Shown: positions 5,632-21,615, counted from the stretch's first letter. The stretch is DNA of 64,000 bases from an uncultured Aliarcobacter sp. (GCA_963664305.2 CAXXLV010000002.1:448001-512000); one strand, 5' to 3'. Program-made: numbers and translations. Notes: generated from the sequence alone by a model not told the origin.

Positions 5632-6501
5632 CTATTTAAATCTATTTTTTAGAAACTCTATCAGGGTTTCAAAAAGTAGATTTTTTGTTTTTTCTTTATG
5701 ATAAACCAAATAAAATTCTCTTTTTAATTTCAAATTTTTTAGTTTTATTTGAAATAGTTTTTTCTTTTTTAACTCTTCTTCTACAATAATTTTTGATATA
5801 GCTGTAACCGTGTCTGGATTATTTAAAACAATTTTTTTAATCTCTTCAAAATCTTGTAATTGCATAAAAATATCTAACTCTTTTGATATTTCTCCTATTT
5901 GATTTATAAATATTTCCCTTGTTCCTGAACCAATTTCTCTTAAAATCCATCTTTTTTTTATGGTATCAATAAAAGCCTCTTTTAAATAGTTCTTATCACT
6001 TGTAACTACAATCAATTCATCATCACTAAGTTTTTCTTTTATTAAACTTGAGTTTTGTGTATCAACTTCAATTAAACCAATATCAAGTTCAGATTTTAAT
6101 ATTTTTTCTATAATTTTACTTGAATTAATGGTGGAAATATCAAGTTTTACATCTTTGTATTTTGTCAAAAAATCATAATAAATATTTGGCATTATGTAGT
6201 TTGAAATAGTTCTACTTGAAGCTATTTTTATATTTCCTGCCAGTTTATTTTCTTGGAAAATAGTTTGTGCATCCATAAGTGCTAAATAGTGAGAAAGAGT
6301 CTTTTCTTTAAAATATTTTCCCTTTTCATTTAAAATTAGTTTTTTACCAATTCTGTTAAATAGTTGTTCATTTAGTGAATTTTCTAGAGATTTTATTGCT
6401 AGAGAAATAGCTGATTGACTAATATTTAATTCACTTGCTACTTGAGTAACTTGAGGATTTTCACTTAGTTTATAAAAAAAGTGTAGTTCTTTAAGGGTCA
6501 T
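5632..6501 (-). CDS. LysR family transcriptional regulator (YeiE/CysL-like)
   Basis: N-terminal HTH (SQSAISLAIKSLE...LFNRIGKK); WILREIGSGTRE; divergent from yeiH. Confidence 0.88.
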   Translation of the reverse strand: MTLKELHFFYKLSENPQVTQVASELNISQSAISLAIKSLENSLNEQLFNRIGKKLILNEKGKYFKEKTLSHYLALMDAQTIFQENKLAGNIKIASSRTISNYIMPNIYYDFLTKYKDVKLDISTINSSKIIEKILKSELDIGLIEVDTQNSSLIKEKLSDDELIVVTSDKNYLKEAFIDTIKKRWILREIGSGTREIFINQIGEISKELDIFMQLQDFEEIKKIVLNNPDTVTAISKIIVEEELKKKKLFQIKLKNLKLKREFYLVYHKEKTKNLLFETLIEFLKNRFK

Positions 6502-6600
6502 AATTTTCCTTATTAAAAATATTAATCATTATATTAAAATTAATATATTTTACAAATTAATAAATAGGAGTTATACTTACAAAATCAAAGGAGTTGTATT

Positions 6601-7623
6601 ATGAAAATTAATAATTTAGATATGAAAAATACTTTTTATGGAGTTTTATTTGTTGGATTTTTTTCTTTAATAGCAACGATTTTAGCAGGAGTAGATTTTT
6701 TTAGAAATTTAGGAATTAGCTCACTTATAATAGGAATAGTTTTAGGAATTTTTTATGCAAACACATTTAAAAAAAGATTTTTAAATTTTGGAAAAAATGG
6801 AATAATATTTTCAACAAAATATATTTTAAGATTTGGAATTATTTTATATGGATTTAGATTGACTTTTCAAAATTTGCAAGAAGTAGGATTTAACGGAATT
6901 TTTATTGCTTTTTTTATAGTTTTTTTTACTTTTATTTTTGGATACTTTATTGGGGTAAAAGTTTTAAAAATTGACCGTGAGATTGCTATTTTATGTAGTG
7001 CTGGAAGTTCTATTTGTGGAGCAGCAGCTGTTATGGCAACACAAAGTGTTCTAAAAAATGAAGCTTATAAAAGTGCCATTGCAGTATCTTTTGTAGTGAT
7101 TTTTGGAACAATAGCTATGTTTTTGTATCCATTTTTGTATAAATTAGGAATATTTGATTTAAGTGCTTCTCAAATGGGAGTTTATATAGGTGCAACTTTA
7201 CATGAAGTAGCTCATGTTGTGGGTTCTTCAAATAGTTTGGGAGAAGTAGTATCTAAAGATGCAATTATTGTAAAAATGATAAGAGTAATATTTATAGTTC
7301 CTTTTTTAATTTTATTATCAATTTGGTTGATTAAAACAGGTTTTCATAATAAAAAAGAGAAATCAAAAGTTATTATTCCTTGGTTCGCTTTGATATTTAT
7401 AGTTGTTGTGGGATTCAATTCTTTTGGCTTTTTGAGTATAAAAACAATAGAAAATATAAATTATTTAGATAATTTTGCTTTAACAATGGCAATGACAGCC
7501 TTAGGAATGGAAACAAGTTTTGATAAGTTTAAAAATATTGGTATGAAACCTTTTTATTTATCTTTGATTTTATTTGTTTGGTTGATTATTATTGGATATT
7601 TGTTAGTAAAATTCTTTTTTTAA
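6601..7623 (+). CDS. yeiH: YeiH family putative sulfate/sulfite exporter
   Basis: LRFGIILYGFRL, AGSSICGAAAV, GATLHEVAHVV, IVKMIRV, TMAMTALG motifs. Confidence 0.9.
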   Translation: MKINNLDMKNTFYGVLFVGFFSLIATILAGVDFFRNLGISSLIIGIVLGIFYANTFKKRFLNFGKNGIIFSTKYILRFGIILYGFRLTFQNLQEVGFNGIFIAFFIVFFTFIFGYFIGVKVLKIDREIAILCSAGSSICGAAAVMATQSVLKNEAYKSAIAVSFVVIFGTIAMFLYPFLYKLGIFDLSASQMGVYIGATLHEVAHVVGSSNSLGEVVSKDAIIVKMIRVIFIVPFLILLSIWLIKTGFHNKKEKSKVIIPWFALIFIVVVGFNSFGFLSIKTIENINYLDNFALTMAMTALGMETSFDKFKNIGMKPFYLSLILFVWLIIIGYLLVKFFF

Positions 7624-7651
7624 ATAAGTATCTTTAAAAAGATACTTATTT
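7622..7651. terminator. Bidirectional intrinsic terminator between yeiH and the convergent operon
   Basis: Perfect inverted repeat AAATAAGTATCTTT-AA-AAAGATACTTATTT. Confidence 0.7.
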
Positions 7652-7652
7652 T

Positions 7653-8483
7653 TTACCAATTATTTTTCATTAAATCTTGTTCAAACATAGCTTGTGTTAA
7701 AACATCATAACCTTTTAATTCTTCAGCAGTTGTAACAACCCATTTATTTAAACCTTCCATTTGCATCATTTTTTTGATGATTGGTTCATTTGGGTCTTGT
7801 GAAAGCATCATATCAACAAAAGTTTTTTTCACTTTTTCATCTAAACTATTGAGAGCTGTAAAGTTACAATGACAATATCCCTCACTTACATAAAAAGATT
7901 CGATTTCACCTGCAGGAAATAATCCCTCCTCAATAATTCTAATCCAAGTGCTAATACCAATTGCTCCTGCATCAATTTTATCTTCTTTTATAGCTTCAAT
8001 AATATCAAATTCACTTCTTCCTGTATCTCCATGTTTTCCTAAATTAGAATTAAATCTAATAATTTCAACATCATTGATTTTTTCTTTTAGTTCATTTTGT
8101 AGATATTTTAAAGGTAAAATTGCAGCTTGAGCTGAATCAGCACTTCCAAGACCAAATTTTTTGCCTTTTAAATCATGAATAGATTTAATACCACTTTTTG
8201 CTTTTGTGATAAACACAGATTTAAAATCAATATCCGTATCTCTCATAAGTAAAGCTTGAGCTTTGTGATTACTTAATTCATAAGTTCTTACCCAAGCAAC
8301 ATTTGTATTCCAAGCAATATCTATTTTCCCAGATAATAAATATTCAATTTGTGCTTCATAATTTGAAAATAGAATATAATCAAGTCTTACACCATTATCA
8401 TTGAAATAATCTCTAATAATATCCCAAATCGGTACAACTTTTGGGTCATAAGCAACTGAACCCACAACTATTGGTTTTTGCAT
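7653..8483 (-). CDS. PhnD/phosphonate-binding-fold (PBP2) protein without signal peptide
   Basis: YEAQIEYLLSGKIDIAW, DLKGKKFGLGSADS typical of PhnD-like proteins; N-terminus is not a signal peptide; GYCHCNFT motif. Confidence 0.8.
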   Translation of the reverse strand: MQKPIVVGSVAYDPKVVPIWDIIRDYFNDNGVRLDYILFSNYEAQIEYLLSGKIDIAWNTNVAWVRTYELSNHKAQALLMRDTDIDFKSVFITKAKSGIKSIHDLKGKKFGLGSADSAQAAILPLKYLQNELKEKINDVEIIRFNSNLGKHGDTGRSEFDIIEAIKEDKIDAGAIGISTWIRIIEEGLFPAGEIESFYVSEGYCHCNFTALNSLDEKVKKTFVDMMLSQDPNEPIIKKMMQMEGLNKWVVTTAEELKGYDVLTQAMFEQDLMKNNW

Positions 8484-8492
8484 TTTTTATCC

Positions 8493-9620
8493 TTATAAAA
8501 TTGATTGATTTGTTAAAGCTTTTCCAAGCCAAGTTGTAAGAACATCAGTACTTGGAGCCATAACTTGTGCTGCAAGTGAATCTCTTAATAGTCTTTCTAT
8601 ATTTATTCTTTTAGCGTATGCTGTACCTCCACCAATCTTCATAGCTAAAGTACAAACTTTTACAGCCATTTCAGAAGCATGAATTCTTGCAGCTAATACA
8701 TTTGCTTGAGCCATTGGGTCAGCTTCAATTACACTTTTTGCAGCACTTAATGTAAAATATTTCGCACTTGCTGCATTTGTATAGATTTCAGAGATATGAT
8801 TTTGAACAGTTGGGATATTACATAAAGCTGTTTCATCACTATATTTTCTATTTATTGAATACTCATTGATTGAATTACAAGCATTTAAAGCAACTCCACT
8901 ATAAACAGCTGCTAATCCCATGATAAAAAATGGACCAACACAATTAAATATTTGATCTAGTCCCGTTCCACTCTCCCCAATTTTTGATTTTTCATCAATT
9001 TTTACATCTTTTAAAATCATTGGACAAGAAGCATTTCCTCTCATACCAAGACCATTCCAAGCACTCTCTTCAAAAGTAATTCCAGCTAAATCTTTTGAAA
9101 TAATCCAGTTATCTAAACCTTCAGTTTCAACAGAGTTTGCATCAATTAAATAATAATCAGCATAAGTAGCAGATGTAACAAAACTTTTTCTACCATTCAT
9201 AAATAAAGTTTCATTTTCTTTTGTAACTTTAATTTCTGGATTATAAAAGTGTGTTCCTGTTCCACTTTCACTATATGCAAGTGCTAACATAATTTCACCA
9301 TTTGCAATTCTTGGTAAAAACTCTTTTTTTAGTTCATCACTTCCATAAGTTGCAATACAATTTGTTGCAACATTGTGCATCATATAACATAAAGCTGTTG
9401 TGGCGCAATAATTTGCAAAAGCTAAAATAGTTTGTGTATGGTCTTGAAAATTTAATCCCATTCCTCCAAACTCTTTTGGAACTAAAAGACCTGTTAATTT
9501 TTTTTCTTTAATTGCTTTAAAACTTTCAACTGGAAATTTTCCCTCAATATCCACATTGTCTGTATATGGTGCAATATTTTCTTTTGCAAACTCTAACATT
9601 TCATTATATAAATTTGACAT
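8493..9620 (-). CDS. Acyl-CoA dehydrogenase-fold flavoprotein (non-canonical)
   Basis: LLVPKEFGGMG, ALAYSESGTG, NGRKSFVTSA, WNGLGMRG, IGGGTAY...IERLLRDS. Confidence 0.88.
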   Translation of the reverse strand: MSNLYNEMLEFAKENIAPYTDNVDIEGKFPVESFKAIKEKKLTGLLVPKEFGGMGLNFQDHTQTILAFANYCATTALCYMMHNVATNCIATYGSDELKKEFLPRIANGEIMLALAYSESGTGTHFYNPEIKVTKENETLFMNGRKSFVTSATYADYYLIDANSVETEGLDNWIISKDLAGITFEESAWNGLGMRGNASCPMILKDVKIDEKSKIGESGTGLDQIFNCVGPFFIMGLAAVYSGVALNACNSINEYSINRKYSDETALCNIPTVQNHISEIYTNAASAKYFTLSAAKSVIEADPMAQANVLAARIHASEMAVKVCTLAMKIGGGTAYAKRINIERLLRDSLAAQVMAPSTDVLTTWLGKALTNQSIL

Positions 9621-9631
9621 TTTTTTTCCTA

Positions 9632-10882
9632 CTACATAAAATTTGGTGTATGAACTTTAGAAATATCATTTGCTAAATCTTCATCCATACCTATATCTAC
9701 TAATCTTTTTATTCTATTTGTATTCATTTTTTGTTTTAGTTCTTCAACTAAATCAAATCCTCTTTTATAATCCTCTGGCTCATCACTTCCACCTGCAAGA
9801 ATTGCTAATGATTCAAGTAAAATAGAAGATTCACTATTTATTTCATCCATAAACTCTTTTCTTTTATAAGCAGTATTTTTTAAAGCATTTATTCTATTTG
9901 GATTTTGTTCTATTGCTGATTTTACATGTTCAACACCATAAGCAACATGTCGCATTTCATCTCTTTTTGCAAGGCGAATGATTTTTTTTGTTGCATCATC
10001 AGGCATATGTTTTTCCAAAAATGAGAGTAAATCTACAAAAGTACCTTCACCCATAACATGAAGTAAAAATGAGCTTTTTATATAATCATCTTCTTTAAAT
10101 AAAGAAAAAAGTGAACGTTGAGTAACTTCACTTGAGTATTGAAATCCTCCTCCATTCGCATTTGCTCTTTTTGTAAAAACTTCAATATGTCTTGCTTCAT
10201 CATTCATTAGTGATGATAAAAAAAGAGGAACTTCCATATAGTATGGATTTATTTTACTTATAAATTTTCCAGGAATATATAAAGCTGAAAATTCATTTTC
10301 AACTAAATAAGTCATGATTTGGCATACAGCTTTTTCTATAACAGGATTTAGATTTGGTATTTCATTCCAAGGAATATCAGTTGTTGCATTCCATTGAAGA
10401 TTTTTTCCTTCTTCATATAAAACTGAAACAGGATTTGACCAAACTTGTTCTTTAAAAGATAATTCAAAATCATAAATTGGACTATTTTCTTGAGTTATGA
10501 TTCCTCTTGTTAAAAGCCCATTATCAATTGGAGCTTTTGCTAAAATTTCTTCACTTAACTCTAAATCTTTTAGTTTTGGATTTGAAGTATCAATACCTTT
10601 CATTTTTTTGCCCCAAGAAGCTTTTGAAGTAAAAGAATTTTTACTTATTTTTTGGATTTTATAAGAGTATTGATTTTTTAATGCAACTCTACCTAAGTAG
10701 AAATGACCTTTAAGTTTTGCCCATCCTTGAAGTTCAATTTCAATATTTGCTTTAAGTGAAACAATTTCAATTATTTCATAAATATTTGCTAATAAAAAAG
10801 CATTCTCAAGTTTTAGAAATAAGGCTTTAGAAGGAGGTAAATCACCAGTAAATATAGATATACAATGATTTTGATTATTCAA
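9632..10882 (-). CDS. Ferritin-like di-iron protein with N-terminal TusA/SirA-like domain
   Basis: Ligand pattern ENE...DEARH...GEGTF...DEMRH; QWNATTDIPW; N-terminal ~80 aa resembles TusA (ELQGWAKLKGH...YSYKIQK); GGAG RBS, TTG start. Confidence 0.8.
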   Translation of the reverse strand: MNNQNHCISIFTGDLPPSKALFLKLENAFLLANIYEIIEIVSLKANIEIELQGWAKLKGHFYLGRVALKNQYSYKIQKISKNSFTSKASWGKKMKGIDTSNPKLKDLELSEEILAKAPIDNGLLTRGIITQENSPIYDFELSFKEQVWSNPVSVLYEEGKNLQWNATTDIPWNEIPNLNPVIEKAVCQIMTYLVENEFSALYIPGKFISKINPYYMEVPLFLSSLMNDEARHIEVFTKRANANGGGFQYSSEVTQRSLFSLFKEDDYIKSSFLLHVMGEGTFVDLLSFLEKHMPDDATKKIIRLAKRDEMRHVAYGVEHVKSAIEQNPNRINALKNTAYKRKEFMDEINSESSILLESLAILAGGSDEPEDYKRGFDLVEELKQKMNTNRIKRLVDIGMDEDLANDISKVHTPNFM

Positions 10883-10980
10883 AATGAATCTCCAAAATTA
10901 GATTTTAATTTTGGCCATGCAGTAAATTGTTTAAATTAACGATGGAATCTCTACCTGAGATCTCGAATCGTTATTCTAAC
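10883..10980 (-). promoter_or_regulatory. Structured 5' leader (two hairpins, one overlapping the SD) of the ferritin-like/ACAD/PhnD operon
   Basis: Stem CCAAAATTA-N5-TAATTTTGG (10892-10914) includes the GG of GGAG; upstream stem TAACGAT...ATCTC-AGGTA-GAGAT...ATCGTTA (10937-10973). Confidence 0.45.
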
Positions 10981-11013
10981 AAAAAGATTTAAAAAGTAAA
11001 TAAAATTTTACCA

Positions 11014-11046
11014 AAATAGTAAAATCAAAAAATGATTTTACTATTT
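11014..11046 (-). terminator. Intrinsic terminator of the dsbC-like gene
   Basis: 14-bp perfect inverted repeat AAATAGTAAAATCA-N5-TGATTTTACTATTT overlapping the stop codon. Confidence 0.6.
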
Positions 11047-11775
11047 AACTTCAATTCCAAATTTTTCAAGTAGATTTACCCAAACAATGTTATTTCCATT
11101 TTTATCAAATATTGTTGGTGTTCCTTGAACGTTTAAAGACATTCCAATTTGAACTTGTTCTTCTAATTGTTTTTCAAGTTTCGCTAGTTGAGCTTGTGTA
11201 TATTTTGCATTTTTTACTTTATCTAAATTTTCACTTGCATCAAACATTGCATCTATTTTTGCATTTAATGTTTTTTGACTCATAATATATAATGATAAAT
11301 CTTTTGCATTTTCATGTGATTCTAAAGGAAAATAAAAAACTCTTATTTTTACTTTATCTTTTATTTGTGGAAGATATGATTCTAGTTTTTTACAATAAGG
11401 ACATTCAGGGTCTGTAAATAAATAATATTCTTCCTTTCCTGTTCCATAAACAAATGCTTCTTTACCTTTTGCATTTGTTAAATCAACAGGAGCTGATATT
11501 TTCATTCCATTATTTACATCAATAACATCACCAGAAAGAATAAGTTTTTTATCTTTTGTTAAATAAATTTCATCACTATTTCCTTGAACATTGATAGTTA
11601 AAATATATAAACTTCCAACATCAAAAGCTTTTACTATTTTTATTTGTGCTCTTTTAAATAATTCTAATTGTTCCATTTGAACAATTTCGTTTTTTGATAC
11701 TTCTTTTGTAGCAGCATTTAAACTACAAGTTAGGATAAGAAAAACAATTAATATTTTTTTAATTAACTCAAACAT
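11041..11775 (-). CDS. dsbC: DsbC/DsbG-type periplasmic thiol:disulfide isomerase
   Basis: Signal peptide; FTDPECPYCKK active site; cis-Pro loop VQGTPT. Confidence 0.85.
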   Translation of the reverse strand: MFELIKKILIVFLILTCSLNAATKEVSKNEIVQMEQLELFKRAQIKIVKAFDVGSLYILTINVQGNSDEIYLTKDKKLILSGDVIDVNNGMKISAPVDLTNAKGKEAFVYGTGKEEYYLFTDPECPYCKKLESYLPQIKDKVKIRVFYFPLESHENAKDLSLYIMSQKTLNAKIDAMFDASENLDKVKNAKYTQAQLAKLEKQLEEQVQIGMSLNVQGTPTIFDKNGNNIVWVNLLEKFGIEVK

Positions 11776-14215: not shown

Positions 14216-14587
14216 TTAGTCACAAAAATTATTTTGACAAGGGTTATCAGATGTGATTTTTCCAAACTCTTTTACATAATCTATTCCCCATTTATGCATC
14301 TCTTCAAGTACGGCTCTTAGATTTTCTCCTGCTTTTGTTAAACTATATACAACCTTTGGTGGAACACTAGCAAAACATTCTCTATTAATGATATTTTTTT
14401 CTTCTAATTCTTTTAATTTTATAGTTAAAGTTTTTTGTGTTATTTCACTTATTATTTCATGTAATTCTTTAAATCTTTTTTCACCATCAAGTAAGTGCCA
14501 AATAATTGCTAATTTCCATCTATCATTAAAAATATCAAGTGTTACGGCAACACTACATCTATATTCTTTATCATTTATATAATACAT
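14216..14587 (-). CDS. HxlR (MarR/DUF24) family transcriptional regulator
   Basis: CSVAVTLDIFNDRWKLAII...RFKEL...ITQKTLTIKLKELE...VPPKVVYSLT. Confidence 0.92.
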   Translation of the reverse strand: MYYINDKEYRCSVAVTLDIFNDRWKLAIIWHLLDGEKRFKELHEIISEITQKTLTIKLKELEEKNIINRECFASVPPKVVYSLTKAGENLRAVLEEMHKWGIDYVKEFGKITSDNPCQNNFCD

Positions 14588-14642
14588 ATTAAATTCCTTA
14601 TTTTTACAATTTCAATTATAACATAATAAAAATTAATTCCTA

Positions 14643-14664
14643 TTACTTACCTAAAGTAAAGTAA
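14643..14664. promoter_or_regulatory. Candidate HxlR-family operator
   Basis: TTACTTAC-N5-GTAAAGTAA imperfect inverted repeat between the divergent hxlR-like and mdaB genes. Confidence 0.4.
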
Positions 14665-14717
14665 GAGTAAATTAAGTTTATTGTTAATATAATTTTCAAA
14701 ATTAAAAAGGAGCAAAA

Positions 14718-15299
14718 ATGAAGAAAGTTTTAATTTTAAATGGACATCAATATTATGATGTTGTGGCTAAAGGTGAATTGACTCAACATTTTATTGATAA
14801 AGCAAATGATTTTTTTATAAAAAATGGATTTGAAGTAAAACAAACTCACATTGAAAAAGGTTACAATGTAGAAGAAGAGTGTGAAAAATTTGAATGGGCT
14901 GATTATGTTTTATTTCAATATCCAGTTTATTGGATGGGTGTTCCTTGGATTGCAAAAAAATATTTTGATGAAACATTTACTCAAGGAAGACATTATGCAA
15001 GTGATGGAAGAAGTAGAAGTGATGCAAGTAAAACTTATGGAACAGGAGGATTATTAAAAGGTAAAAAGTATATGTTAAGTTTAACGTATAATTGTCCAAC
15101 AAGTGAATTTAGTAATGAAAATGGTTTCTTTGATGGTTTATCTTTAGATGAAGCTCATGTGGCAGTTCATAAAACTTTCCAATTTTGTGGATTAGAGCCA
15201 TTAAAAACTTATTCTGTTCATGATATTTTCAAAGGAGATTTAGATTTAGCTAATGAGTTAGAAAAATTTGAATCAGTTTTAAAAGAGAATTTTTTATAG
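14718..15299 (+). CDS. mdaB: MdaB-type NADPH:quinone oxidoreductase (flavodoxin-like fold)
   Basis: FQYPVYWMGVPWIAKKYFDE, DGRSRSD..K.YGTGGLL, YMLSLTYN. Confidence 0.88.
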   Translation: MKKVLILNGHQYYDVVAKGELTQHFIDKANDFFIKNGFEVKQTHIEKGYNVEEECEKFEWADYVLFQYPVYWMGVPWIAKKYFDETFTQGRHYASDGRSRSDASKTYGTGGLLKGKKYMLSLTYNCPTSEFSNENGFFDGLSLDEAHVAVHKTFQFCGLEPLKTYSVHDIFKGDLDLANELEKFESVLKENFL

Positions 15300-15308
15300 G
15301 AAAAAAAT

Positions 15309-15605
15309 ATGAAAAATATTGTAATAGTTGCAACTATAAAAGTGAAAAAAGGTTTTAAAGATGAAGTTTATAATGAACTTATAAAATTGCATAAAGCAAC
15401 TCATGAATTTGATGAAGGTTGTATTCAATATGATTTACATAAAGATTTAAGTGATGAGGATAGTTTTACTTTTGTTGAAACTTGGGAAAATCAAGAACTT
15501 TTATCTTTACATGAAACAAAAGAGCATTTTAAAAACTTTGTATCTAAAATCGAAAATAAAATAGATGGTTTAACAATCAATAAATTAGAAAAATTAGAAA
15601 TCTAA
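15309..15605 (+). CDS. Putative quinol monooxygenase (ABM domain, YgiN-like)
   Basis: DEGCIQYDLHKD...FTFVETWE...H..TKEHF; directly after mdaB. Confidence 0.85.
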   Translation: MKNIVIVATIKVKKGFKDEVYNELIKLHKATHEFDEGCIQYDLHKDLSDEDSFTFVETWENQELLSLHETKEHFKNFVSKIENKIDGLTINKLEKLEI

Positions 15606-15617
15606 AAAGGATTTTTT

Positions 15618-16649
15618 ATGAGCTTATTACTAAAAAGTGGAAATATTGGAGCATTAGAGTTAAAAAATAGAGTTGTAATGCCACCTATGTGTATGTATAA
15701 AAGTGATAATAGTGGAGAAATAAAAGATTTTCATAAATATCACTATGTATCAAGAGCCTTAGGTGGAGTAGGGTTTATTATAGTTGAAGCAACTGCAATA
15801 GAGCCAAAAGGAAGAATTTCATCAAACGATTTAGGCCTTTGGGATGATTCTTTGATAGAAAAGCATAAACAATTAAATAAAGATATACACTCTTTTGGTG
15901 CTAAAACAGCAATTCAAATTGCCCATGCTGGAAGAAAGTCAACTGTTATTGATTCAACTCCTATTGCTCCAAGTTCAATTGCTTTTTCAAAAGAAGCTCC
16001 ATTTAAAATTCCTAAAGAAGTTTCAATAGCAGAGATTGAAAATATTAAAAAATTATTTATAAATGCAGCTTTTAGAGCAAAAGAGGCAGACTATGATGCT
16101 ATTGAACTTCATGCAGCTCATGGCTATTTATTATGTGAGTTTTTATCACCAATTTCAAATAATAGAACAGATATTTATGGTGGAACTTTAGAGAATAGAT
16201 GTAGATTAGTTTTAGAAATAGCCCATGAGATAAAACAAAAATTAGATTTGCCTTTGATTGTTAGAATTAGTGCTGATGAGTGGATGAATGAAGGTTGGAA
16301 TATAGAAGATTCTATTTATTTATCAAAAGAGTTGGAAAAAATCGGAGTTGATGTTATACATGTATCAAGTGGTGGAAATTTAGAAAAACCTGATAATGCT
16401 CCAGCAATTCAAGCTTTATATCAAGCTAATTGGGCAAAAAAAATAAAAGAAAATGTAAATATTCCTGTTATTGCAGTTGGATTAATTACAACAGCAACAG
16501 AAGGAGAGTATCTACTTGAAAACAATTTTTGTGATTTTGTGGCTTATGGTCGAGAGTTACTTAGAAATCCAAATTTAGTTTTTTATGTAGCAAATGAATT
16601 TAGAGAAAAAGAGAGCATAAATAGTTCTTATCAAAGAGCATTTATATAA
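15618..16649 (+). CDS. NADH:flavin oxidoreductase / Old Yellow Enzyme (NamA/YqjM-like)
   Basis: KNRVVMPPMCMY, QIAHAGRK, ELHAAHGYLLCEFLSP..NNRTD.YGG. Confidence 0.92.
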   Translation: MSLLLKSGNIGALELKNRVVMPPMCMYKSDNSGEIKDFHKYHYVSRALGGVGFIIVEATAIEPKGRISSNDLGLWDDSLIEKHKQLNKDIHSFGAKTAIQIAHAGRKSTVIDSTPIAPSSIAFSKEAPFKIPKEVSIAEIENIKKLFINAAFRAKEADYDAIELHAAHGYLLCEFLSPISNNRTDIYGGTLENRCRLVLEIAHEIKQKLDLPLIVRISADEWMNEGWNIEDSIYLSKELEKIGVDVIHVSSGGNLEKPDNAPAIQALYQANWAKKIKENVNIPVIAVGLITTATEGEYLLENNFCDFVAYGRELLRNPNLVFYVANEFREKESINSSYQRAFI

Positions 16650-16664
16650 TAGAAAGTAGATAAA

Positions 16665-17576
16665 ATGATTCAAAAAAGTAATACCAAATATTTTATTGGT
16701 ATGTTTATAGCTATGATAATTTGGGGAATAGCATGGACTTCAGGAAAAGCAGCAACAGAACATTCGAATCCAGAAGTTGCTGCATTTTGGAGATATGCAA
16801 TCTCTTTTTTAACGATAATTCCTGTTATTTTATATATGAAAACGGTTTTAAAAACAGATAAAATAGGATTATTTTATATGATAGGTGCTGGAATTTTAAG
16901 TGCTATATTTAATTATCTGTTTTTTAAGGGATTATCTCATGGAGCAGCTGGTTATGGAGGAACAATGGTAACCTCAATTGCTCCAATAATTACATATATA
17001 TTATCAATTATAATTTTTAAAACCCAAGTGTCAGCAAAACAAATTTTTGCACTTGGAATTGGAATTTTTGGTGCATTAGTTTTACTTCGAGTTCCTTCAG
17101 AAGGATTTGCTTTTTTAAATGTAAATAGTTCATATTTTTTAGCTTGTGCTGTAGTATGGGCTATGGTTACAATATTTTCACAAAAAGCATCAAAAAGAGC
17201 AGACCCGATGTTTTATACTTTAGTTGTTTTTGGAATTACTGGATTTATAAATATGATTTTTGCCTTACCTTATCATCCTTTTGCTTTTGCATCGTATGAT
17301 TATGTATTTTGGTTAAATATTATTTATATTGGAGTTTTTTCAGGGACTTTTGCAATGACACTTTTTTTTGTATCAGCTGCAAAAATTGGAGCCCATAACA
17401 CAGGAGTATTTATGTTTATAGTTCCTATAGGAGCGATAGTTTCAAGCTATTTTGCATATAATGAGAATATTGCTTTATCGACAATTATGGGATGTATTTT
17501 ATCATTTGTTGCTGTTGTATTATTTAATACAAAAAGTAAATTAGAGCGATTAAAAGCCAAAGAAAATTTAATTTAA
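16665..17576 (+). CDS. DMT/EamA family transporter
   Basis: 303 aa, about 10 TMs, IWG and R-Y EamA signature positions. Confidence 0.85.
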   Translation: MIQKSNTKYFIGMFIAMIIWGIAWTSGKAATEHSNPEVAAFWRYAISFLTIIPVILYMKTVLKTDKIGLFYMIGAGILSAIFNYLFFKGLSHGAAGYGGTMVTSIAPIITYILSIIIFKTQVSAKQIFALGIGIFGALVLLRVPSEGFAFLNVNSSYFLACAVVWAMVTIFSQKASKRADPMFYTLVVFGITGFINMIFALPYHPFAFASYDYVFWLNIIYIGVFSGTFAMTLFFVSAAKIGAHNTGVFMFIVPIGAIVSSYFAYNENIALSTIMGCILSFVAVVLFNTKSKLERLKAKENLI

Positions 17577-17586
17577 AAGGATAATT

Positions 17587-18222
17587 ATGGAAAAAACATT
17601 TATGGAAGCAATGGAATTTAGACATGCTTGTAAGATTTTTGATGAAACTAAAAAAATTAGTGATGAAGATATGAAATTTATTTTAGAAGTTGGAAGAAAA
17701 AGTCCTAGTTCTTTTGGTCAAGAAGGTTGGAAATTTTTAGTTATTACAAATGAAGAATTAAAAGCAAAATTAAGACCTTTTTGCTGGGATCAACCACAAG
17801 TTACAACTTGTTCTCATTTAGTAATTATATTAGCTGCAATTGATGCTGTTAAACCAGAATCAGGAATTCCAGCAACAAGATTTGCAAGACGTGAAATGCC
17901 TCAAGAGAAAAAAGATTTTTATAACAAATTATATAAAGACCATTTAACAGTTACAAAAGTTTTAGATAGCGATGATAATGTTTATTCTTGGACAGCTAGA
18001 CAATCTTATATAGCAGCAGGAAATATGATGACAGCAGCAGCAACAAAAGGAATTGATTCTTGTCCAATCGAAGGATTTGATAAAGCAAAAGTTGAAGAAG
18101 TTTTAGGACTGGATACTAAAAAATTCCAATTAGCAATGGTTTTACCTTTTGGTTACAGAATAAATCCTCAATCAACTCAAATGAGATTACCTTTTGAAGA
18201 AGTAGTTGAATATATAAAATAA
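17587..18222 (+). CDS. NAD(P)H-dependent nitroreductase (NfsB/FrxA-like)
   Basis: RHACKIFD, SPSSFGQEGW, GIDSCPIEGF, FGYR. Confidence 0.92.
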   Translation: MEKTFMEAMEFRHACKIFDETKKISDEDMKFILEVGRKSPSSFGQEGWKFLVITNEELKAKLRPFCWDQPQVTTCSHLVIILAAIDAVKPESGIPATRFARREMPQEKKDFYNKLYKDHLTVTKVLDSDDNVYSWTARQSYIAAGNMMTAAATKGIDSCPIEGFDKAKVEEVLGLDTKKFQLAMVLPFGYRINPQSTQMRLPFEEVVEYIK

Positions 18223-18344: not shown

Positions 18345-19034
18345 ATGAATACAGTTTTTATTGATACTCAAGATAAAAAGAAAAAGTCTGTATTAGTTAT
18401 AAGTGAAGATTTAATTTATTTAGATAAATTAAAAAAAGAAGTTAGTTTAACTTTCAATTTTACATTTTTTGAGAATAATAAATTCTATTTATTAAGTAGT
18501 ACGATTAATAATTTTGATGTAATCATATTTGATAATAGCAATAATAATCTAAAAAAATTTCTTGATGTTTTTAAACTTACGAAATCTTATAATTTTAATA
18601 TACCTATAATTTTATTGGAAGAGAATATGGAACAAGATTTGTCTTTATATAAAATTATTAATGTTTATTCAGTTTTTCAAAAGCCAATTGCTGTAGATTT
18701 TTTACTAAATACAGTTGAATTATGTGCAAATTTTTTAGATACAAATAAAAAAGTTCAGTTTGAAAATGGTTATTACTTTGATATAACAAGAGAAGAGTTA
18801 TTTCATGGTAAAAAAATTATTAAATTAACAAGAACAGAAAAAAAATTAATAAATTTGTTAGCTAAAAACCCAAATAGTTTAGTAACATATGAAGATATTT
18901 CAGATGTAGTTTGGAAAGGTAAAGTCTTTTCTAAATATTCATTAAGAAATGTTATTAATCATATTAGAGAAAAAACTGATGATACTTTCATAAGAAATTA
19001 CTCAAATAGAGGGTATATTTTAAACAGCATTTAG
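18345..19034 (+). CDS. OmpR-family response regulator with atypical receiver domain
   Basis: C-terminal winged helix (KLTRTEKKLINLL...LRNVINHIREK...RGY); receiver motifs degenerate. Confidence 0.8.
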   Translation: MNTVFIDTQDKKKKSVLVISEDLIYLDKLKKEVSLTFNFTFFENNKFYLLSSTINNFDVIIFDNSNNNLKKFLDVFKLTKSYNFNIPIILLEENMEQDLSLYKIINVYSVFQKPIAVDFLLNTVELCANFLDTNKKVQFENGYYFDITREELFHGKKIIKLTRTEKKLINLLAKNPNSLVTYEDISDVVWKGKVFSKYSLRNVINHIREKTDDTFIRNYSNRGYILNSI

Positions 19035-19072
19035 TTTTTTACTTTTTTTAAAAATTACAATATAATAATTTT

Positions 19073-19972
19073 ATGATAAAAAAATTAACATTAATATTTT
19101 TTATATTGTTTTTTTTTAACTCTTGTGAGAATACTTCAACAAAGTATTCTCCAAAATATCAAAAAGATAAAGTTATTGTAAGTAAACAAGTTTATATTTT
19201 TGGTATTCATCCTTTATACAATCCCAAACAACTTTTTGCAGTGTATCAGCCTTTGATTGATTATTTAAATAAAAATTTAACAGATGTGCAATTTGAATTA
19301 GAAGCTTCAATTAATTATGATTCTTTTAATGAAAAGTTATCTTCAAGACATTTTGATTTTGCATTACCAAATCCCTATCAAACTTTAGAATCATTAAAAT
19401 CTGGCTACCAAGTTTTTGCAAAAATGGCAGAAGATGAAAAATTTAAAGGAATTATTTTAGTTAGAAAAGATAGTGATATTAAAGAATTTGAAGATGTTAA
19501 AGGTAAAAAAATAAGTTATCCAGCTTCAACTGCTCTTGCAGCGACACTTTTACCTCAATATTTTTTATATGAAAATGGTATTGATGTAAATAAAGATATT
19601 GAAAATATTTATGTTGGTTCTCAAGAATCATCTATTATGAATATCTATTTAAAAACAGCTGATTTATCTGCTACTTGGACTCAACCTTGGGAAAAATTTA
19701 AAAAAGAGAGACCAGAAATTGCAAAAGAGATAAAAGTATTATGGGAAACAAAAAATTTACCTAATAATACTTTAGTTGTAAGAGATGATGTGCCAAAGGA
19801 TTTAGTAGAAAAAGTTGCTAAATTATTACTTGAGTTAAATTCAAATGCAGAAGGTGAGTTGATACTTTATAAAATTGATTTAAGTCATTTTGAAAGAGCA
19901 GATGAAAATACATATATTGTTGTAAAAGATTTTATAGATAGTTTTGAAAAGAATATAAGGAAAATAAAATGA
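19073..19972 (+). CDS. PhnD-like substrate-binding lipoprotein
   Basis: Lipobox-like FFNSC; FGIHPL, FALPNPYQ, GIILVRKDS, ALAATLLP, YVGSQESS. Confidence 0.85.
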   Translation: MIKKLTLIFFILFFFNSCENTSTKYSPKYQKDKVIVSKQVYIFGIHPLYNPKQLFAVYQPLIDYLNKNLTDVQFELEASINYDSFNEKLSSRHFDFALPNPYQTLESLKSGYQVFAKMAEDEKFKGIILVRKDSDIKEFEDVKGKKISYPASTALAATLLPQYFLYENGIDVNKDIENIYVGSQESSIMNIYLKTADLSATWTQPWEKFKKERPEIAKEIKVLWETKNLPNNTLVVRDDVPKDLVEKVAKLLLELNSNAEGELILYKIDLSHFERADENTYIVVKDFIDSFEKNIRKIK

Positions 19973-21615
19973 TAGAAAAAATCAAAGCATTTTATTTAAA
20001 CTCTATAAAGCGAAGATTGATTATAACTATAACTGTTAGTTATATTATTTTAATGAGTATTTTTGTTTATGATTTATTAAGTGAACAAAGAAAATTTTTA
20101 GAAACACAAAATATCAAACAAGTTAAAAGTTTAACAAAAAGTGTTGCTCAAAACTCTGTTTTATGGATGTTATCAAATGATTATATAGGATTAGAAGAGT
20201 TAATCTCTTCAATATCTAAATATCCAAATTTAGAGTATGCAATGATTTTAAATAAAGAAGGAAAAATTATTGCTCATAGTGATAAAGAATATGTAAATTT
20301 ATATATATCAGATGATTTAAGTTTAGCTTTTTTATTATCAAAAAAAATTGAACCATATATGCTAGTACAAAACAATGAAATTATTGATTATATAATGCCT
20401 ATTTTAAGAGATAATCAACATATTGGTTGGGTAAGAATTGCATTAAATCAAAATGAAATTTCAAAAAATCTACAACAAATTTTTTATGAAGCAATTTTAT
20501 TTATATTAATTGCAATAGTTATTGGATATCTATTTTCTTATTTTTTAGCAACAAATATTACAAAAGATTTATATACTTTAATAAAAGTAGCAACTCAAAC
20601 CGCAACAGGAAATAGAAATCAAAGAGCAAATATTCAAAGAAAAGATGAGTTAGGAATTTTATCTAATGAGATAAATAAGATGCTTGATAAAATTGAAGAA
20701 AATGAAAAACAGTTAGAAATATCAAACAGAGAGTTGGAAAAAGATATTGTAAAACTTGAATTGATGGATAGTAAATTAACTCAATTAAATAGAGATTTAG
20801 AGAAAAAAGTTGAAGAAAAAACTTACGAATTAAAAAAATTAAATGATAATCTTAAAAAAGAGATAAAAGAAGAAGTTGAACAAAATAGAAGAAAAGACAA
20901 TATGCTTTTCCAACAGTCAAAAATGGCTTCTATGGGAGAAATGATTGAAAATATTGCTCATCAATGGAGACAACCTTTAAGTCTTATTTCTACAAGTGCA
21001 AGTGGGATTAGATTGAACAAAGAGTATAACACATTAACTGATGAACTTTTAAATGAAGCGGTTGAAAATATAATGAACAGTACAAATTTTTTATCAAATA
21101 CAATTGATGATTTTAGAGATTTTTATAAAGTTGATAAGATTAAAGAAAAATTCAATATAAAAGATGTTTTAGATAAAACATTAAAATTAACAAGTTCAAG
21201 ATTTACAAATAGAGCAATAAAAGTGATTAAAGAGTGTGAAGATGTTGAAATTTTAGGTTTTGAAAATGAATTAGTACAAGTGTTTATAAATCTTTTAAAT
21301 AATGCAAGAGACGTTTTAGAAGAGTTACCATATGAAGAGAGATATATTTTTGTAACAATTAAAAAAATTGAAAATGAGGCTTATATCTCATTAAAAGATA
21401 ATGCAAATGGTATTGAAGAATCAATTCTTGAAAAAATATTTGACCCATATTTTACAACTAAAGGTTCAGATAAAGGAACTGGTATTGGATTGTTCATGTC
21501 AAAAGAGATTATCGAAAAACATTTTCATGGAAAAATAATCGCTCAAAATGAAACATTTACTTACAATAAAAAAGAGTATAAAGGAGCAAATTTTATAATT
21601 ACGATACCTTTTTAG
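19969..21615 (+). CDS. Membrane sensor histidine kinase (HAMP)
   Basis: Two TMs; HAMP (RKDELGILSNEIN); H-box IAHQWRQPL; N, G1, F and G2 boxes; ATGA overlap with upstream gene. Confidence 0.93.
   Translation: MIEKIKAFYLNSIKRRLIITITVSYIILMSIFVYDLLSEQRKFLETQNIKQVKSLTKSVAQNSVLWMLSNDYIGLEELISSISKYPNLEYAMILNKEGKIIAHSDKEYVNLYISDDLSLAFLLSKKIEPYMLVQNNEIIDYIMPILRDNQHIGWVRIALNQNEISKNLQQIFYEAILFILIAIVIGYLFSYFLATNITKDLYTLIKVATQTATGNRNQRANIQRKDELGILSNEINKMLDKIEENEKQLEISNRELEKDIVKLELMDSKLTQLNRDLEKKVEEKTYELKKLNDNLKKEIKEEVEQNRRKDNMLFQQSKMASMGEMIENIAHQWRQPLSLISTSASGIRLNKEYNTLTDELLNEAVENIMNSTNFLSNTIDDFRDFYKVDKIKEKFNIKDVLDKTLKLTSSRFTNRAIKVIKECEDVEILGFENELVQVFINLLNNARDVLEELPYEERYIFVTIKKIENEAYISLKDNANGIEESILEKIFDPYFTTKGSDKGTGIGLFMSKEIIEKHFHGKIIAQNETFTYNKKEYKGANFIITIPF

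Follow-up and report, generated by a model that had tools for sequence, protein, structure and literature searches.

A conserved three-gene cassette of an uncultured Aliarcobacter sp., a candidate cytoplasmic redox system with an exchangeable third partner

The three genes and their products

A 64,000-nucleotide (nt) stretch of DNA from an uncultured Aliarcobacter sp. (GCA_963664305.2, CAXXLV010000002.1:448001-512000; hereafter the window) contains three minus-strand open reading frames (ORFs), which we designated g1, g2, and g3, separated by gaps of 11 nt (g1/g2) and 9 nt (g2/g3) (Table 1). Comparison of this cassette with related loci showed that g2 and g3 form a constant core, whereas the third gene differs among lineages. 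The initial annotation had described closely spaced genes bounded by two hairpins, and both the ORFs and the folding scores agreed with this layout: the upstream hairpin (−13.6 kcal/mol, z −6.9) and the downstream hairpin (−12.3 kcal/mol, z −6.0) were each equalled by 0 of 200 shuffled sequences. The upstream hairpin is likely the terminator of the preceding DsbC/G-like gene, and the downstream hairpin, which sits between g3 and a convergent yeiH-like gene, likely serves as a two-way terminator and as the downstream border of the cassette. A consensus terminator scan, which needs three G-C pairs, returned 0 sites at either hairpin because both are A+T-rich and have no G-C pairs.

Among named proteins, g1 is closest to those of Aliarcobacter (88–90% identity), which places the window in the Arcobacter group of the Campylobacterota. 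The protein contains the motifs ENE (195–197), DEARH (228–232), GEG (278–280), and DEMRH (308–312), and residues E197, E229, H232, E279, D308, E309, and H312 were invariant when g1 was compared with 16 cassette-type relatives. The di-metal ligands are predicted to be E197, E229/H232, E279, and E309/H312; the complete E/ExxH/E/ExxH set read in the initial annotation was thus recovered, with all four motifs present and the ligands invariant among these relatives. The AlphaFold model of g1 (predicted local distance difference test [pLDDT] score, 92.3) consisted of an N-terminal domain (residues 6–77) and a helical core, and its top fold matches were the R2-like ligand-binding oxidases (R2lox; Foldseek E 7e-6), followed by the ribonucleotide reductase R2 subunit and the azoxy synthase VlmB. 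A profile of the g1 family, when compared with solved proteins, likewise matched R2lox (E 2.6e-7) and a VlmB homologue (E 1.1e-6). Among the curated families of Pfam and NCBIfam, g1 was under the cut-off everywhere, including DUF455 (PF04305; 25.0 bits, cut-off 34.3), AurF (PF11583; 16.9, cut-off 29.6), and the R2lox models NF006200 (32.6 bits vs 194) and NF006202 (21.8 vs 315), although some g1 relatives have a precomputed PF04305 match. Taken together, these similarities place g1 among the ferritin-like di-metal carboxylate proteins of the R2/R2lox type, with a predicted Fe/Fe or Mn/Fe site.

R2lox and the Mn/Fe-dependent R2c proteins share with g1 the four-helix-bundle fold and the E/ExxH/E/ExxH ligands, and in all of them, presumably, the first ligand is Glu and Phe occupies the position of the class Ia radical tyrosine. 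In class Ia R2 proteins, the radical tyrosine lies four residues after the first His ligand. The residue four positions past H232 in g1 is F236, which was invariant in the cassette-type relatives, and g1 was therefore rejected as a class Ia ribonucleotide reductase R2. Among solved proteins, R2lox stands nearest to g1 (13–18% identity); g1 differs from it by having a TusA-like domain and a linker, an aromatic-Met C-terminus, and fixed ACAD (acyl-CoA dehydrogenase) and substrate-binding-protein (SBP)-like partners. The linker includes a near-invariant G122, R126, E131 motif (GLxxRG). One longer relative (P0151, 658 aa) combines a ferritin-like domain of the g1 family with a lycopene-cyclase-family (flavoprotein) match in its C-terminal region, providing another link between ferritin-like proteins and flavoproteins in the wider g1 family. 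No ACAD or SBP domain was found in this or the other longer g1 relatives.

The N-terminal domain of g1 showed the secondary-structure order of TusA in its model (DSSP: E6-13, H19-31, E37-42, H45-57, E61-67, E72-77), and the family profile matched the solved TusA/SirA, YhhP, YedF, and Ta1170 structures at E 0.002–0.015. Pfam TusA (PF01206; gathering score, 28.6 bits) did not match the N-terminal domain of the window g1; it was the top match in five of six g1 N-terminal domains tested (26.5–35.6 bits), two of these being above the cut-off. TusA carries its persulfide on a Cys at the start of helix 1, within a CPxP motif. No conserved Cys was present in the first 20 aligned columns of the g1 family; the window g1 has L-P-P-S at this site, and its sole early Cys (C7) is Ser in the relatives. 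In other words, the TusA-like fold proposed in the initial annotation stood, but a sulfur-carrier role did not, and because the Cys is not conserved, the domain reads as an adaptor rather than a sulfur carrier.

In the case of g2, the ACAD fold recognized earlier was borne out by the N-terminal, middle, and C-terminal ACAD domains of Pfam (80.3, 60.9, and 50.5 bits, respectively, each over its cut-off). The best-matching family was Rv1679 (NF049984; 271 bits vs a cut-off of 600). When g2 was aligned with three solved ACADs, its V-M-A-P-S fell opposite their catalytic I-Y-E-G-T, so that an invariant V-M-A-P stands in place of the (I/Y)-Y-E-G-T motif that holds the catalytic Glu; M354, A355, and P356 were invariant in 25 relatives. 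At the alternative position used by isovaleryl-CoA dehydrogenase, a catalytic Glu was not seen, as judged by eye only. Electron transfer flavoprotein (ETF; PF01012) was not found in the source genome (G000; 99.96% complete), in a search whose control detected it in 10 of 14 known genomes; this absence is a new observation. The genome contains only two matches to the ACAD N-terminal domain, g2 itself and one within a 791-aa ORF.

The g3 protein matched Pfam Phosphonate-bd (3e-26), and its model (pLDDT 94.3) was closest to the solved folds of PhnD1 (Z 24.4) and of ArrX, PtxB, AioX, and HtxB (Z 20.8–23.6), with a Foldseek E of 2.5e-23. Its best family was the Rv1680 SBP-like family (NF049985; 321 bits vs a cut-off of 400), and the PhnD model TIGR03431 gave 69.8 bits (cut-off 261). 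No signal peptide was recognized on reading the N-terminus, without a predictor: strand 1 opens the protein, and the relatives start alike. An ABC permease or ATPase was neither present among the window neighbours scanned nor recurrent in 49 loci with all three genes. The PhnD fold lacking both a signal peptide and ABC partners, as first described, was thus upheld, and g3 as the binding protein of a PhnD ABC transporter was rejected because it scored below the cut-off, had no N-terminal extension, and had no ABC genes. The invariant residues of g3 (Y12, Y42, W58, N59, R81, D84, D116, S117, H151, D153, E158, H205, C206, E243, and W248) fall on loops after strands in the model, and these are probably the ligand-holding positions of this fold. 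The loop G-S-x-S-S-T-S-G of PhnD (7s6g), which we take to be the oxyanion-binding loop, corresponds to G-S-A-D-S-A-Q-A in g3, with an invariant Asp116. A cytoplasmic enzyme with the fold of g3 is known in the THI5/NMT1 hydroxymethylpyrimidine-phosphate synthase, and Pfam NMT1 did match g3 (38.6 bits, cut-off 20.5); however, the fold match of Thi5 to g3 (rank 46) was much weaker than that of PhnD, and Rfam detected no thiamine riboswitch in the leader. As the initial annotation had noted, all three proteins depart from their textbook roles; in our analysis, g2 lacks the catalytic Glu, g3 lacks a signal peptide and transporter, and g1 is below every family cut-off.

Table 1. Positions of the cassette features in the window (residue numbers refer to g1), with the third cassette form given in the coordinates of its own loci
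Feature	Position	Strand	Description
g1	9632-10882	minus	416 aa; TTG start 7 nt past GGAG
g1 TusA-like domain, residues 1-77	10652-10882	minus	beta-alpha-beta-alpha-beta-beta
g1 linker, residues 78-143	10454-10651	minus	Extended; pLDDT 81-91
g1 predicted di-metal carboxylate domain, residues 144-410	9653-10453	minus	Ferritin-like, R2lox-like; from alignments, model, and profile
g1 C-terminal tail, residues 411-416	9635-9652	minus	H-T-P-N-F-M-COOH; pLDDT of last block 68
g2	8493-9620	minus	375 aa; predicted FAD flavoprotein, ACAD fold, relative of Rv1679/FadE16
g3	7653-8483	minus	276 aa; predicted cytoplasmic ligand-binding protein, PhnD fold, relative of Rv1680 SBP-like family
g1 leader/promoter region	10883-11005	minus	Conserved; aligned with four Arcobacter-group loci
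Upstream hairpin	11014-11046	minus	14-bp stem, A+T-rich, then UAUUUU; upstream cassette border
Downstream hairpin	7622-7651		13-bp stem, A+T-rich, T or A runs on both sides
Third cassette form	L118 4355-8057 (G077); L119 4864-8386 (G184)		Overlapping genes; without g1 or radical SAM gene

Distribution of the cassette and its third partner

A scan with g1, for which one genome per species was used, identified 584 stretches encoding g1 relatives, and the best 80 were kept. In 49 of these 80 loci, g1, g2, and g3 were adjacent and on the same strand, with the order g1-g2-g3 in 25 and g2-g3-g1 in 24. According to the record titles, the trio loci included Aliarcobacter, Arcobacter, Halarcobacter, Helicobacter, Campylobacter, Sulfurimonas, Sulfuricurvum, Brachyspira, Bacillus, Paenibacillus, Effusibacillus, Cohnella, Dehalococcoidia, Actinomycetota (including Streptomyces), Sericytochromatia, Solibacteraceae, Pyrinomonadaceae, Blastocatellia, Acidobacteriaceae, Gemmataceae, Polyangiales, and Myxococcales; these names span about nine phyla. 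The synteny therefore extends far beyond the close relatives of the source organism. When all flanking ORFs were clustered, no other gene family recurred beside the trio. Furthermore, in a sample of 201 Campylobacterota genomes, g1 occurred in 22, and the same 22 had a strong g3 match nearby (E 2.7e-50 or better). From these distributions, the trio is evidently a real, conserved three-component system. The ESM Atlas gave matches only to the protein's own unnamed clusters. Apparent fusions, namely two singletons read as g2-g3 (P0279 and P0283) and a 684-aa g3-g1 form (seen in 3 of 15 members listed for one cluster, in which 5 members have 419 aa), were not used as evidence because frameshifts or gene-calling artefacts are possible.

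The third partner was examined in the best 80 metagenomic g3 loci. The g2 gene lay beside g3 in 70 of them; g1 was the third partner in 20, a radical S-adenosylmethionine (SAM) protein of the Rv1681 type was encoded directly after g3 in 40, and both were present in 0, with a further 18 loci too short for a partner to be called. Among 301 Actinomycetes genomes, g3 (E 1e-30 or better) was found in 19, of which 14 had the radical SAM type, 5 the g1 type, and none both (the 14 include one unpublished genome, G235, without which the radical SAM type accounts for 13 of 18). In one radical SAM locus, the three proteins scored 655 (NF049984), 494 (NF049985), and 513 bits (NF049973), all above the family cut-offs, and no g1 was found within 6 kb of the six radical SAM loci that were retrieved with longer flanking sequence. 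All 31 positions at which g2 is invariant among g1-type cassettes were identical in the six radical SAM-type cassettes compared, and the 30 invariant g3 positions also recurred in all six, apart from one Gly-to-Ala and one Asn-to-Met change at positions 8 and 207, each in a single sequence. Because the invariant residues are identical, the g2-g3 core looks to be built for the same job in both cassette types. We therefore describe g2-g3 as a constant core with a third gene that is exchangeable across lineages, a feature that the initial annotation had overlooked.

Also overlooked earlier was that g2 and g3 appear to belong with the Rv1679 and Rv1680 families, which are named but uncharacterised at NCBI: both proteins were under the cut-offs of these families (271 vs 600 and 321 vs 400 bits), yet these were their best-scoring families. 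In actinomycetes, Rv1679 (FadE16)-Rv1680-Rv1681 (MoeX) comprises the same pair of ACAD-like and SBP-like genes in the same order; the third gene also has a TusA-like N-terminal domain, but its product is a radical SAM protein rather than the di-metal protein of the window. The window cassette is thus best regarded, by homology, as a sister form of the Rv1679-Rv1680-Rv1681 set with a different third enzyme. A passage of one paper calls Rv1680 a putative phosphonate transporter component, on the basis of structural likeness (PMC8562490). As the initial annotation had supposed, no characterised pathway for the trio emerged from the Pfam, NCBIfam, or literature searches (the last as listings and one passage), and the literature listings contained no functional paper on either cassette type.

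The Rv1681-type protein has approximately 60 residues before its CxxxCxxC motif, containing an invariant W-C. Aligned against this N-terminus, the g1 N-domain profile gave an hhalign probability of 72.6% (E 3.2e-5, 57 columns), and Pfam TusA was the top match for all six radical SAM N-termini examined, at 11.8–17.8 bits (below the cut-off). Within the best 80 g1 loci, 51 relatives have the N-terminal domain, and 44 of these stand in a full trio, 4 with g3 only, and 3 with neither (one at a contig end); by comparison, 24 of the 29 relatives matched only from residue 65 on are without g2 and g3, and 5 are in trios. The TusA-like domain thus appears to accompany the g2-g3 core whichever catalytic domain comes after it, and because it goes with the core in both cassette types, we read it as a docking domain. 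That g1 and the radical SAM partner probably share one cysteine-less adaptor domain is a further new point. The C-termini are also characteristic. The tail S..HT.N[FL]M ends g1 in 48 of the 49 trio loci, and an aromatic-Met-COOH end closes the complete g1-family proteins examined, with or without g2 and g3, apart from L085 (Ala-Met-COOH) and L078; forms without the N-terminal domain end LHG..V.NFM or LHGGGG.AYM, and the Rv1681-type radical SAM protein ends F-[PT]-C-[AS]-COOH.

A third arrangement was found in two Campylobacterota genomes (Table 1), in the order ACAD, SBP-like, MetE-like (Meth_synt_2), and OsmC-like. The H205-C206 pair of g3 is invariant in all three cassette types. In two Dehalococcoidia loci (L061 7767-12170 and L065 7986-10760), a g1 relative without the N-terminal domain is followed by OsmC-like and MetE-like genes. 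When the source genome was searched with the third-form proteins, the MetE-like protein matched only the full-length MetE (E 1e-7) and the OsmC-like protein had no match. Latescibacterota and related metagenome-assembled genomes encode a g1 relative that likewise lacks this domain and is followed by a small cupin gene, and the neighbours of such relatives overall (cupin, fatty-acid desaturase, OsmC-like, amidase, and MetE-like) revealed no theme beyond OsmC/MetE.

Proposed function and alternative readings

We suggest that the cassette encodes one self-contained cytoplasmic redox system, in which the g2-g3 core is served by an exchangeable oxidising or radical-generating third subunit; we regard this proposal as about evenly balanced between right and wrong. 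It retains the earlier idea of a single cytoplasmic oxidative unit outside any known pathway, which stands in view of the trio synteny and the pathway searches. In this system, the TusA-like domain would dock the third subunit onto the core. The g1 protein would use O2 at its metal site for a hydrogen-abstracting or oxidising step, an oxidant role suggested by the full E/ExxH/E/ExxH ligand set and the R2lox/R2 fold, and the radical SAM version would perform the same step with S-adenosylmethionine. The target may be a small molecule in the g3 cleft, or g3 itself; the S-, Se-, or P-containing or acyl substrate proposed in the initial annotation is speculative. The flavin adenine dinucleotide (FAD) of g2 would pass electrons to or from the third subunit, because the genome has no ETF to take them and an ACAD-fold flavoprotein without a catalytic base or ETF needs another electron partner; moreover, electrons are consumed both at the g1 di-metal site and at the Fe-S cluster of its radical SAM counterpart.

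O2-dependent and radical SAM enzymes form several known pairs, such as AcsF and BchE, the formylglycine-generating enzyme and anSME, and the class I R2 protein and class III activase of ribonucleotide reductase. The two cassette types resemble pairs of the AcsF/BchE type in that one position of an otherwise identical gene set is filled either by a di-metal O2-activating protein or by a radical SAM protein; unlike in those pairs, both partners share an N-terminal adaptor and serve the same core, and the g3 tree needs only one switch. A more specific version of the redox proposal, which we consider unlikely, is that the cassette encodes a new kind of radical-dependent flavoenzyme whose g2-g3 core cannot start alone and depends on a partner, docked through the cysteine-less TusA-like domain, to activate it or to provide an oxidising equivalent. 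This role would fall to an R2-like Mn/Fe protein that uses O2 in some cassettes and to a radical SAM protein in others, and the strictly conserved sulfur-bearing tails (..N-F-M-COOH in g1 and ..F-P-C-A-COOH in the radical SAM protein) would reach into the core. This would be the logic of class I versus class III ribonucleotide reductase in an unrelated enzyme.

Several observations weigh against the redox proposal. In a wider alignment of 38 g1-family sequences, the Glu residues of both ExxH motifs vary, and among the acidic and His residues only E217, H232, D308, and H312 are invariant. The support for the radical SAM N-terminal domain, from both hhalign and Pfam, lies under the usual thresholds. 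Three long g1 loci are without g2 and g3, four have g3 but no g2 at E 1e-5, and 2 of the 80 metagenomic g3 loci have enough room but neither partner. In a FastTree phylogeny of 128 g3 sequences, from which rows with no or an ambiguous partner, one duplicate, and an unpublished locus were dropped, the radical SAM-type sequences formed one side of a single branch (support 94), and the tree required only two label changes for three labels; a single ancient split thus explains the pattern, and the cassette types may have diverged in function or substrate. Because the radical SAM type occurs in aerobic actinomycetes, a simple division between oxic and anoxic forms is not evident. Finally, the third arrangement does not fit hydrogen abstraction, and the MetE and OsmC links point to a putative thiol chemistry at odds with such a simple picture.

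One alternative is organosulfur desulfurisation of the Dsz (4S) kind, in which a thioether, sulfone, or sulfinate would be oxidised and sulfite released, with g2 acting as DszC, SfnB, or 3-sulfinopropionyl-CoA desulfinase, g3 as DszB (with catalytic Cys, His, and Arg), and g1 replacing DszA. We consider this alternative unlikely. As in the window, the Dsz system encodes a non-dehydrogenase ACAD-fold flavoenzyme together with a cytoplasmic cysteine enzyme of the binding-protein fold, and the further NCBIfam matches of g2, after its own family and acryloyl-CoA reductase (171 bits), included the 3-sulfinopropanoyl-CoA desulfinase (128), SfnB (93), and DszC (54). In g3, the residues C206, H205, H151, and R81 are invariant, SsuA-family models matched at 49 bits, and DszB has the same fold (Z 12.8; root-mean-square deviation, 4.1 over 244 residues). 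Sulfur-linked parts also surround the core (the TusA fold and the MetE-like/OsmC-like pair), rhodanese genes adjoin a lone g3 in L188, and a gene for a YeiH-family putative sulfate exporter adjoins the window cassette. However, the likeness to Dsz is generic: all sulfur-family matches were far under the family cut-offs (DszC, 54 vs 850 bits), DszB was at rank 48 of the representative chains with 10% identity, and g3 was far nearer to PhnD, PtxB, and ArrX (Z 21–24). In DszB, the catalytic cysteine lies near the N-terminus, presumably away from the site of the g3 cysteine. The cysteine of TusA is gone from the TusA-like domain, the DszA-type monooxygenase of Dsz is missing from the cassette, yeiH is not a conserved neighbour of the trio, and no sulfur-responsive riboswitch or regulator was found with Rfam in the leader and eight trio loci. 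The H205-C206 pair of g3, invariant in all three cassette types, would suit another alternative, protein maturation, by which g1 or the radical SAM protein, rather than acting on a free metabolite, would modify a residue of the core, for example, Cys206 of g3, into a protein-derived cofactor, in parallel with the conversion of sulfatase cysteine to formylglycine by both O2-dependent and radical SAM enzymes. Consistent with this, the nearest outside relatives of the Rv1681 type were mostly peptide or protein maturases (ScmE, StsB, MftC, WgkB, and AlbA; 45–76 bits), in a set that also holds MoaA, HpnH, and heme-pathway enzymes, and the adaptor domain was found only where the g2-g3 core was present. 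On the other side, extra cysteines are few in the radical SAM protein (C94, C146, and C331), no SPASM region was matched in it, and it would be unusual for a stoichiometric maturase to be encoded 1:1 with its target in one tight operon throughout all lineages. We judge maturation to be unlikely.

The fold of g3 itself suggests a role in the cytoplasmic metabolism of reduced phosphorus, phosphonate, or an arsenic oxyanion, in which g3 would bind the substrate, in the manner of PhnD, PtxB, AioX, and ArrX, and g1 or the radical SAM protein would cleave or oxidise it, as PhnZ and PhnJ do at C-P bonds. The closest folds of g3 (PhnD1, ArrX, PtxB, AioX, and HtxB; Z 20.8–24.4) and its Phosphonate-bd match (3e-26) speak for this, and cleavage by a di-iron oxygenase and by a radical enzyme are both known routes for C-P bonds. 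We nevertheless regard it as distinctly improbable: the invariant Asp116 in the g3 loop argues against an anion, g3 was well under the PhnD cut-off (69.8 vs 261 bits), and the neighbourhoods of the trio show no recurrent phn, ptx, or ars genes. It is also conceivable that the genes are unrelated neighbours, i.e., an ordinary beta-oxidation dehydrogenase, a binding protein left over from a transporter, and a stress protein of the ferritin-like type, since each fold taken alone has an ordinary textbook role. Such a chance assembly is scarcely credible, given the adjacency in 49 of 80 loci from about nine phyla in two gene orders, and the synteny counts contradict it. Furthermore, g2 is without its catalytic Glu in a genome without ETF, g3 is without a signal peptide or adjoining transporter genes, and g1 and g3 were either both present or both absent in all 201 Campylobacterota genomes sampled.

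Flanking regions and significance of the cassette

The g1 leader contains a TAGAAT −10-like box and the palindrome ATCTCAGGTAGAGAT, whose conserved form is ATCTCAGGT(A/T)GAGAT. The leader also has a stem, CCATC..GATGG, which L012 preserves although both of its arms have changed (CTACAC..GTGTAG), and a 9-bp hairpin (CCAAAATTA/TAATTTTGG) overlaps the start of the GGAG ribosome-binding site; the fold of the leader had a z of −2.4. The leader could function as an operator or as a small regulatory RNA. Rfam assigned no family to it (best score, 26 bits vs a gathering score of 50), and 0 matches were obtained for eight trio loci from Bacillota, Chloroflexota, and Actinomycetota. With one mismatch allowed, the palindrome ATCTCAnnnTGAGAT occurred at 12 sites in the genome, compared with 10 for a control pattern, so that no regulon was readable from it. 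Contigs from three wastewater metatranscriptome runs, 90–99% alike, covered parts of all three genes and bridged both junctions; these give only a weak hint of expression of the cassette, because contigs of this kind do not demonstrate one transcript and may derive from carried-over DNA.

Directly upstream of the cassette lies a gene for a DsbC/DsbG-like periplasmic thiol:disulfide isomerase (11041-11775), and the Rv1679 region of M. tuberculosis presumably likewise has a Dsb-type gene upstream. A DoxD/DoxX-like membrane protein is encoded upstream in two radical SAM-type loci (L112 and L113). On the other side, at 5632-7623, a YeiE-like LysR regulator and the YeiH-family putative sulfate exporter are encoded divergently, the latter region being convergent with g3; clustering of the flanking ORFs showed that these YeiE/YeiH-like neighbours are not kept beside the trio in other genera. 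Farther away, genes for a response regulator, a periplasmic-type PhnD-family protein, and an sCache/HAMP histidine kinase stand in a row (18345-21615), a layout resembling the AioX and ArrX oxyanion sensors; besides g3, this makes the PhnD-family gene (19073-19972; Pfam 1.4e-57) the second PhnD-like gene in the window, and it has no relation to the cassette. The region at 14216-18222 encodes an HxlR-type regulator, a protein of flavodoxin-like fold, an Old Yellow Enzyme-type flavin oxidoreductase, an EamA transporter, and a nitroreductase, and looks like an electrophile or quinone stress set.

The cassette ranges from gut-associated Helicobacter, Campylobacter, Arcobacter, and Brachyspira to soil Bacillota, Actinomycetota, Acidobacteriota, Planctomycetota, and Myxococcota, and its radical SAM form is the family named after three genes of M. 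tuberculosis. As the literature listings consulted gave no function for any version, it represents a sizeable blank in bacterial metabolism. The annotations that its genes receive, namely "acyl-CoA dehydrogenase", "phosphonate-binding protein", and, in some g1 records, "ribonucleotide reductase beta subunit", are all likely wrong here. That two chemically different generators of radicals or oxidants apparently share one adaptor and one identical core offers a handle on the mechanism; the shared adaptor and core would make the binding testable and the two versions directly comparable.

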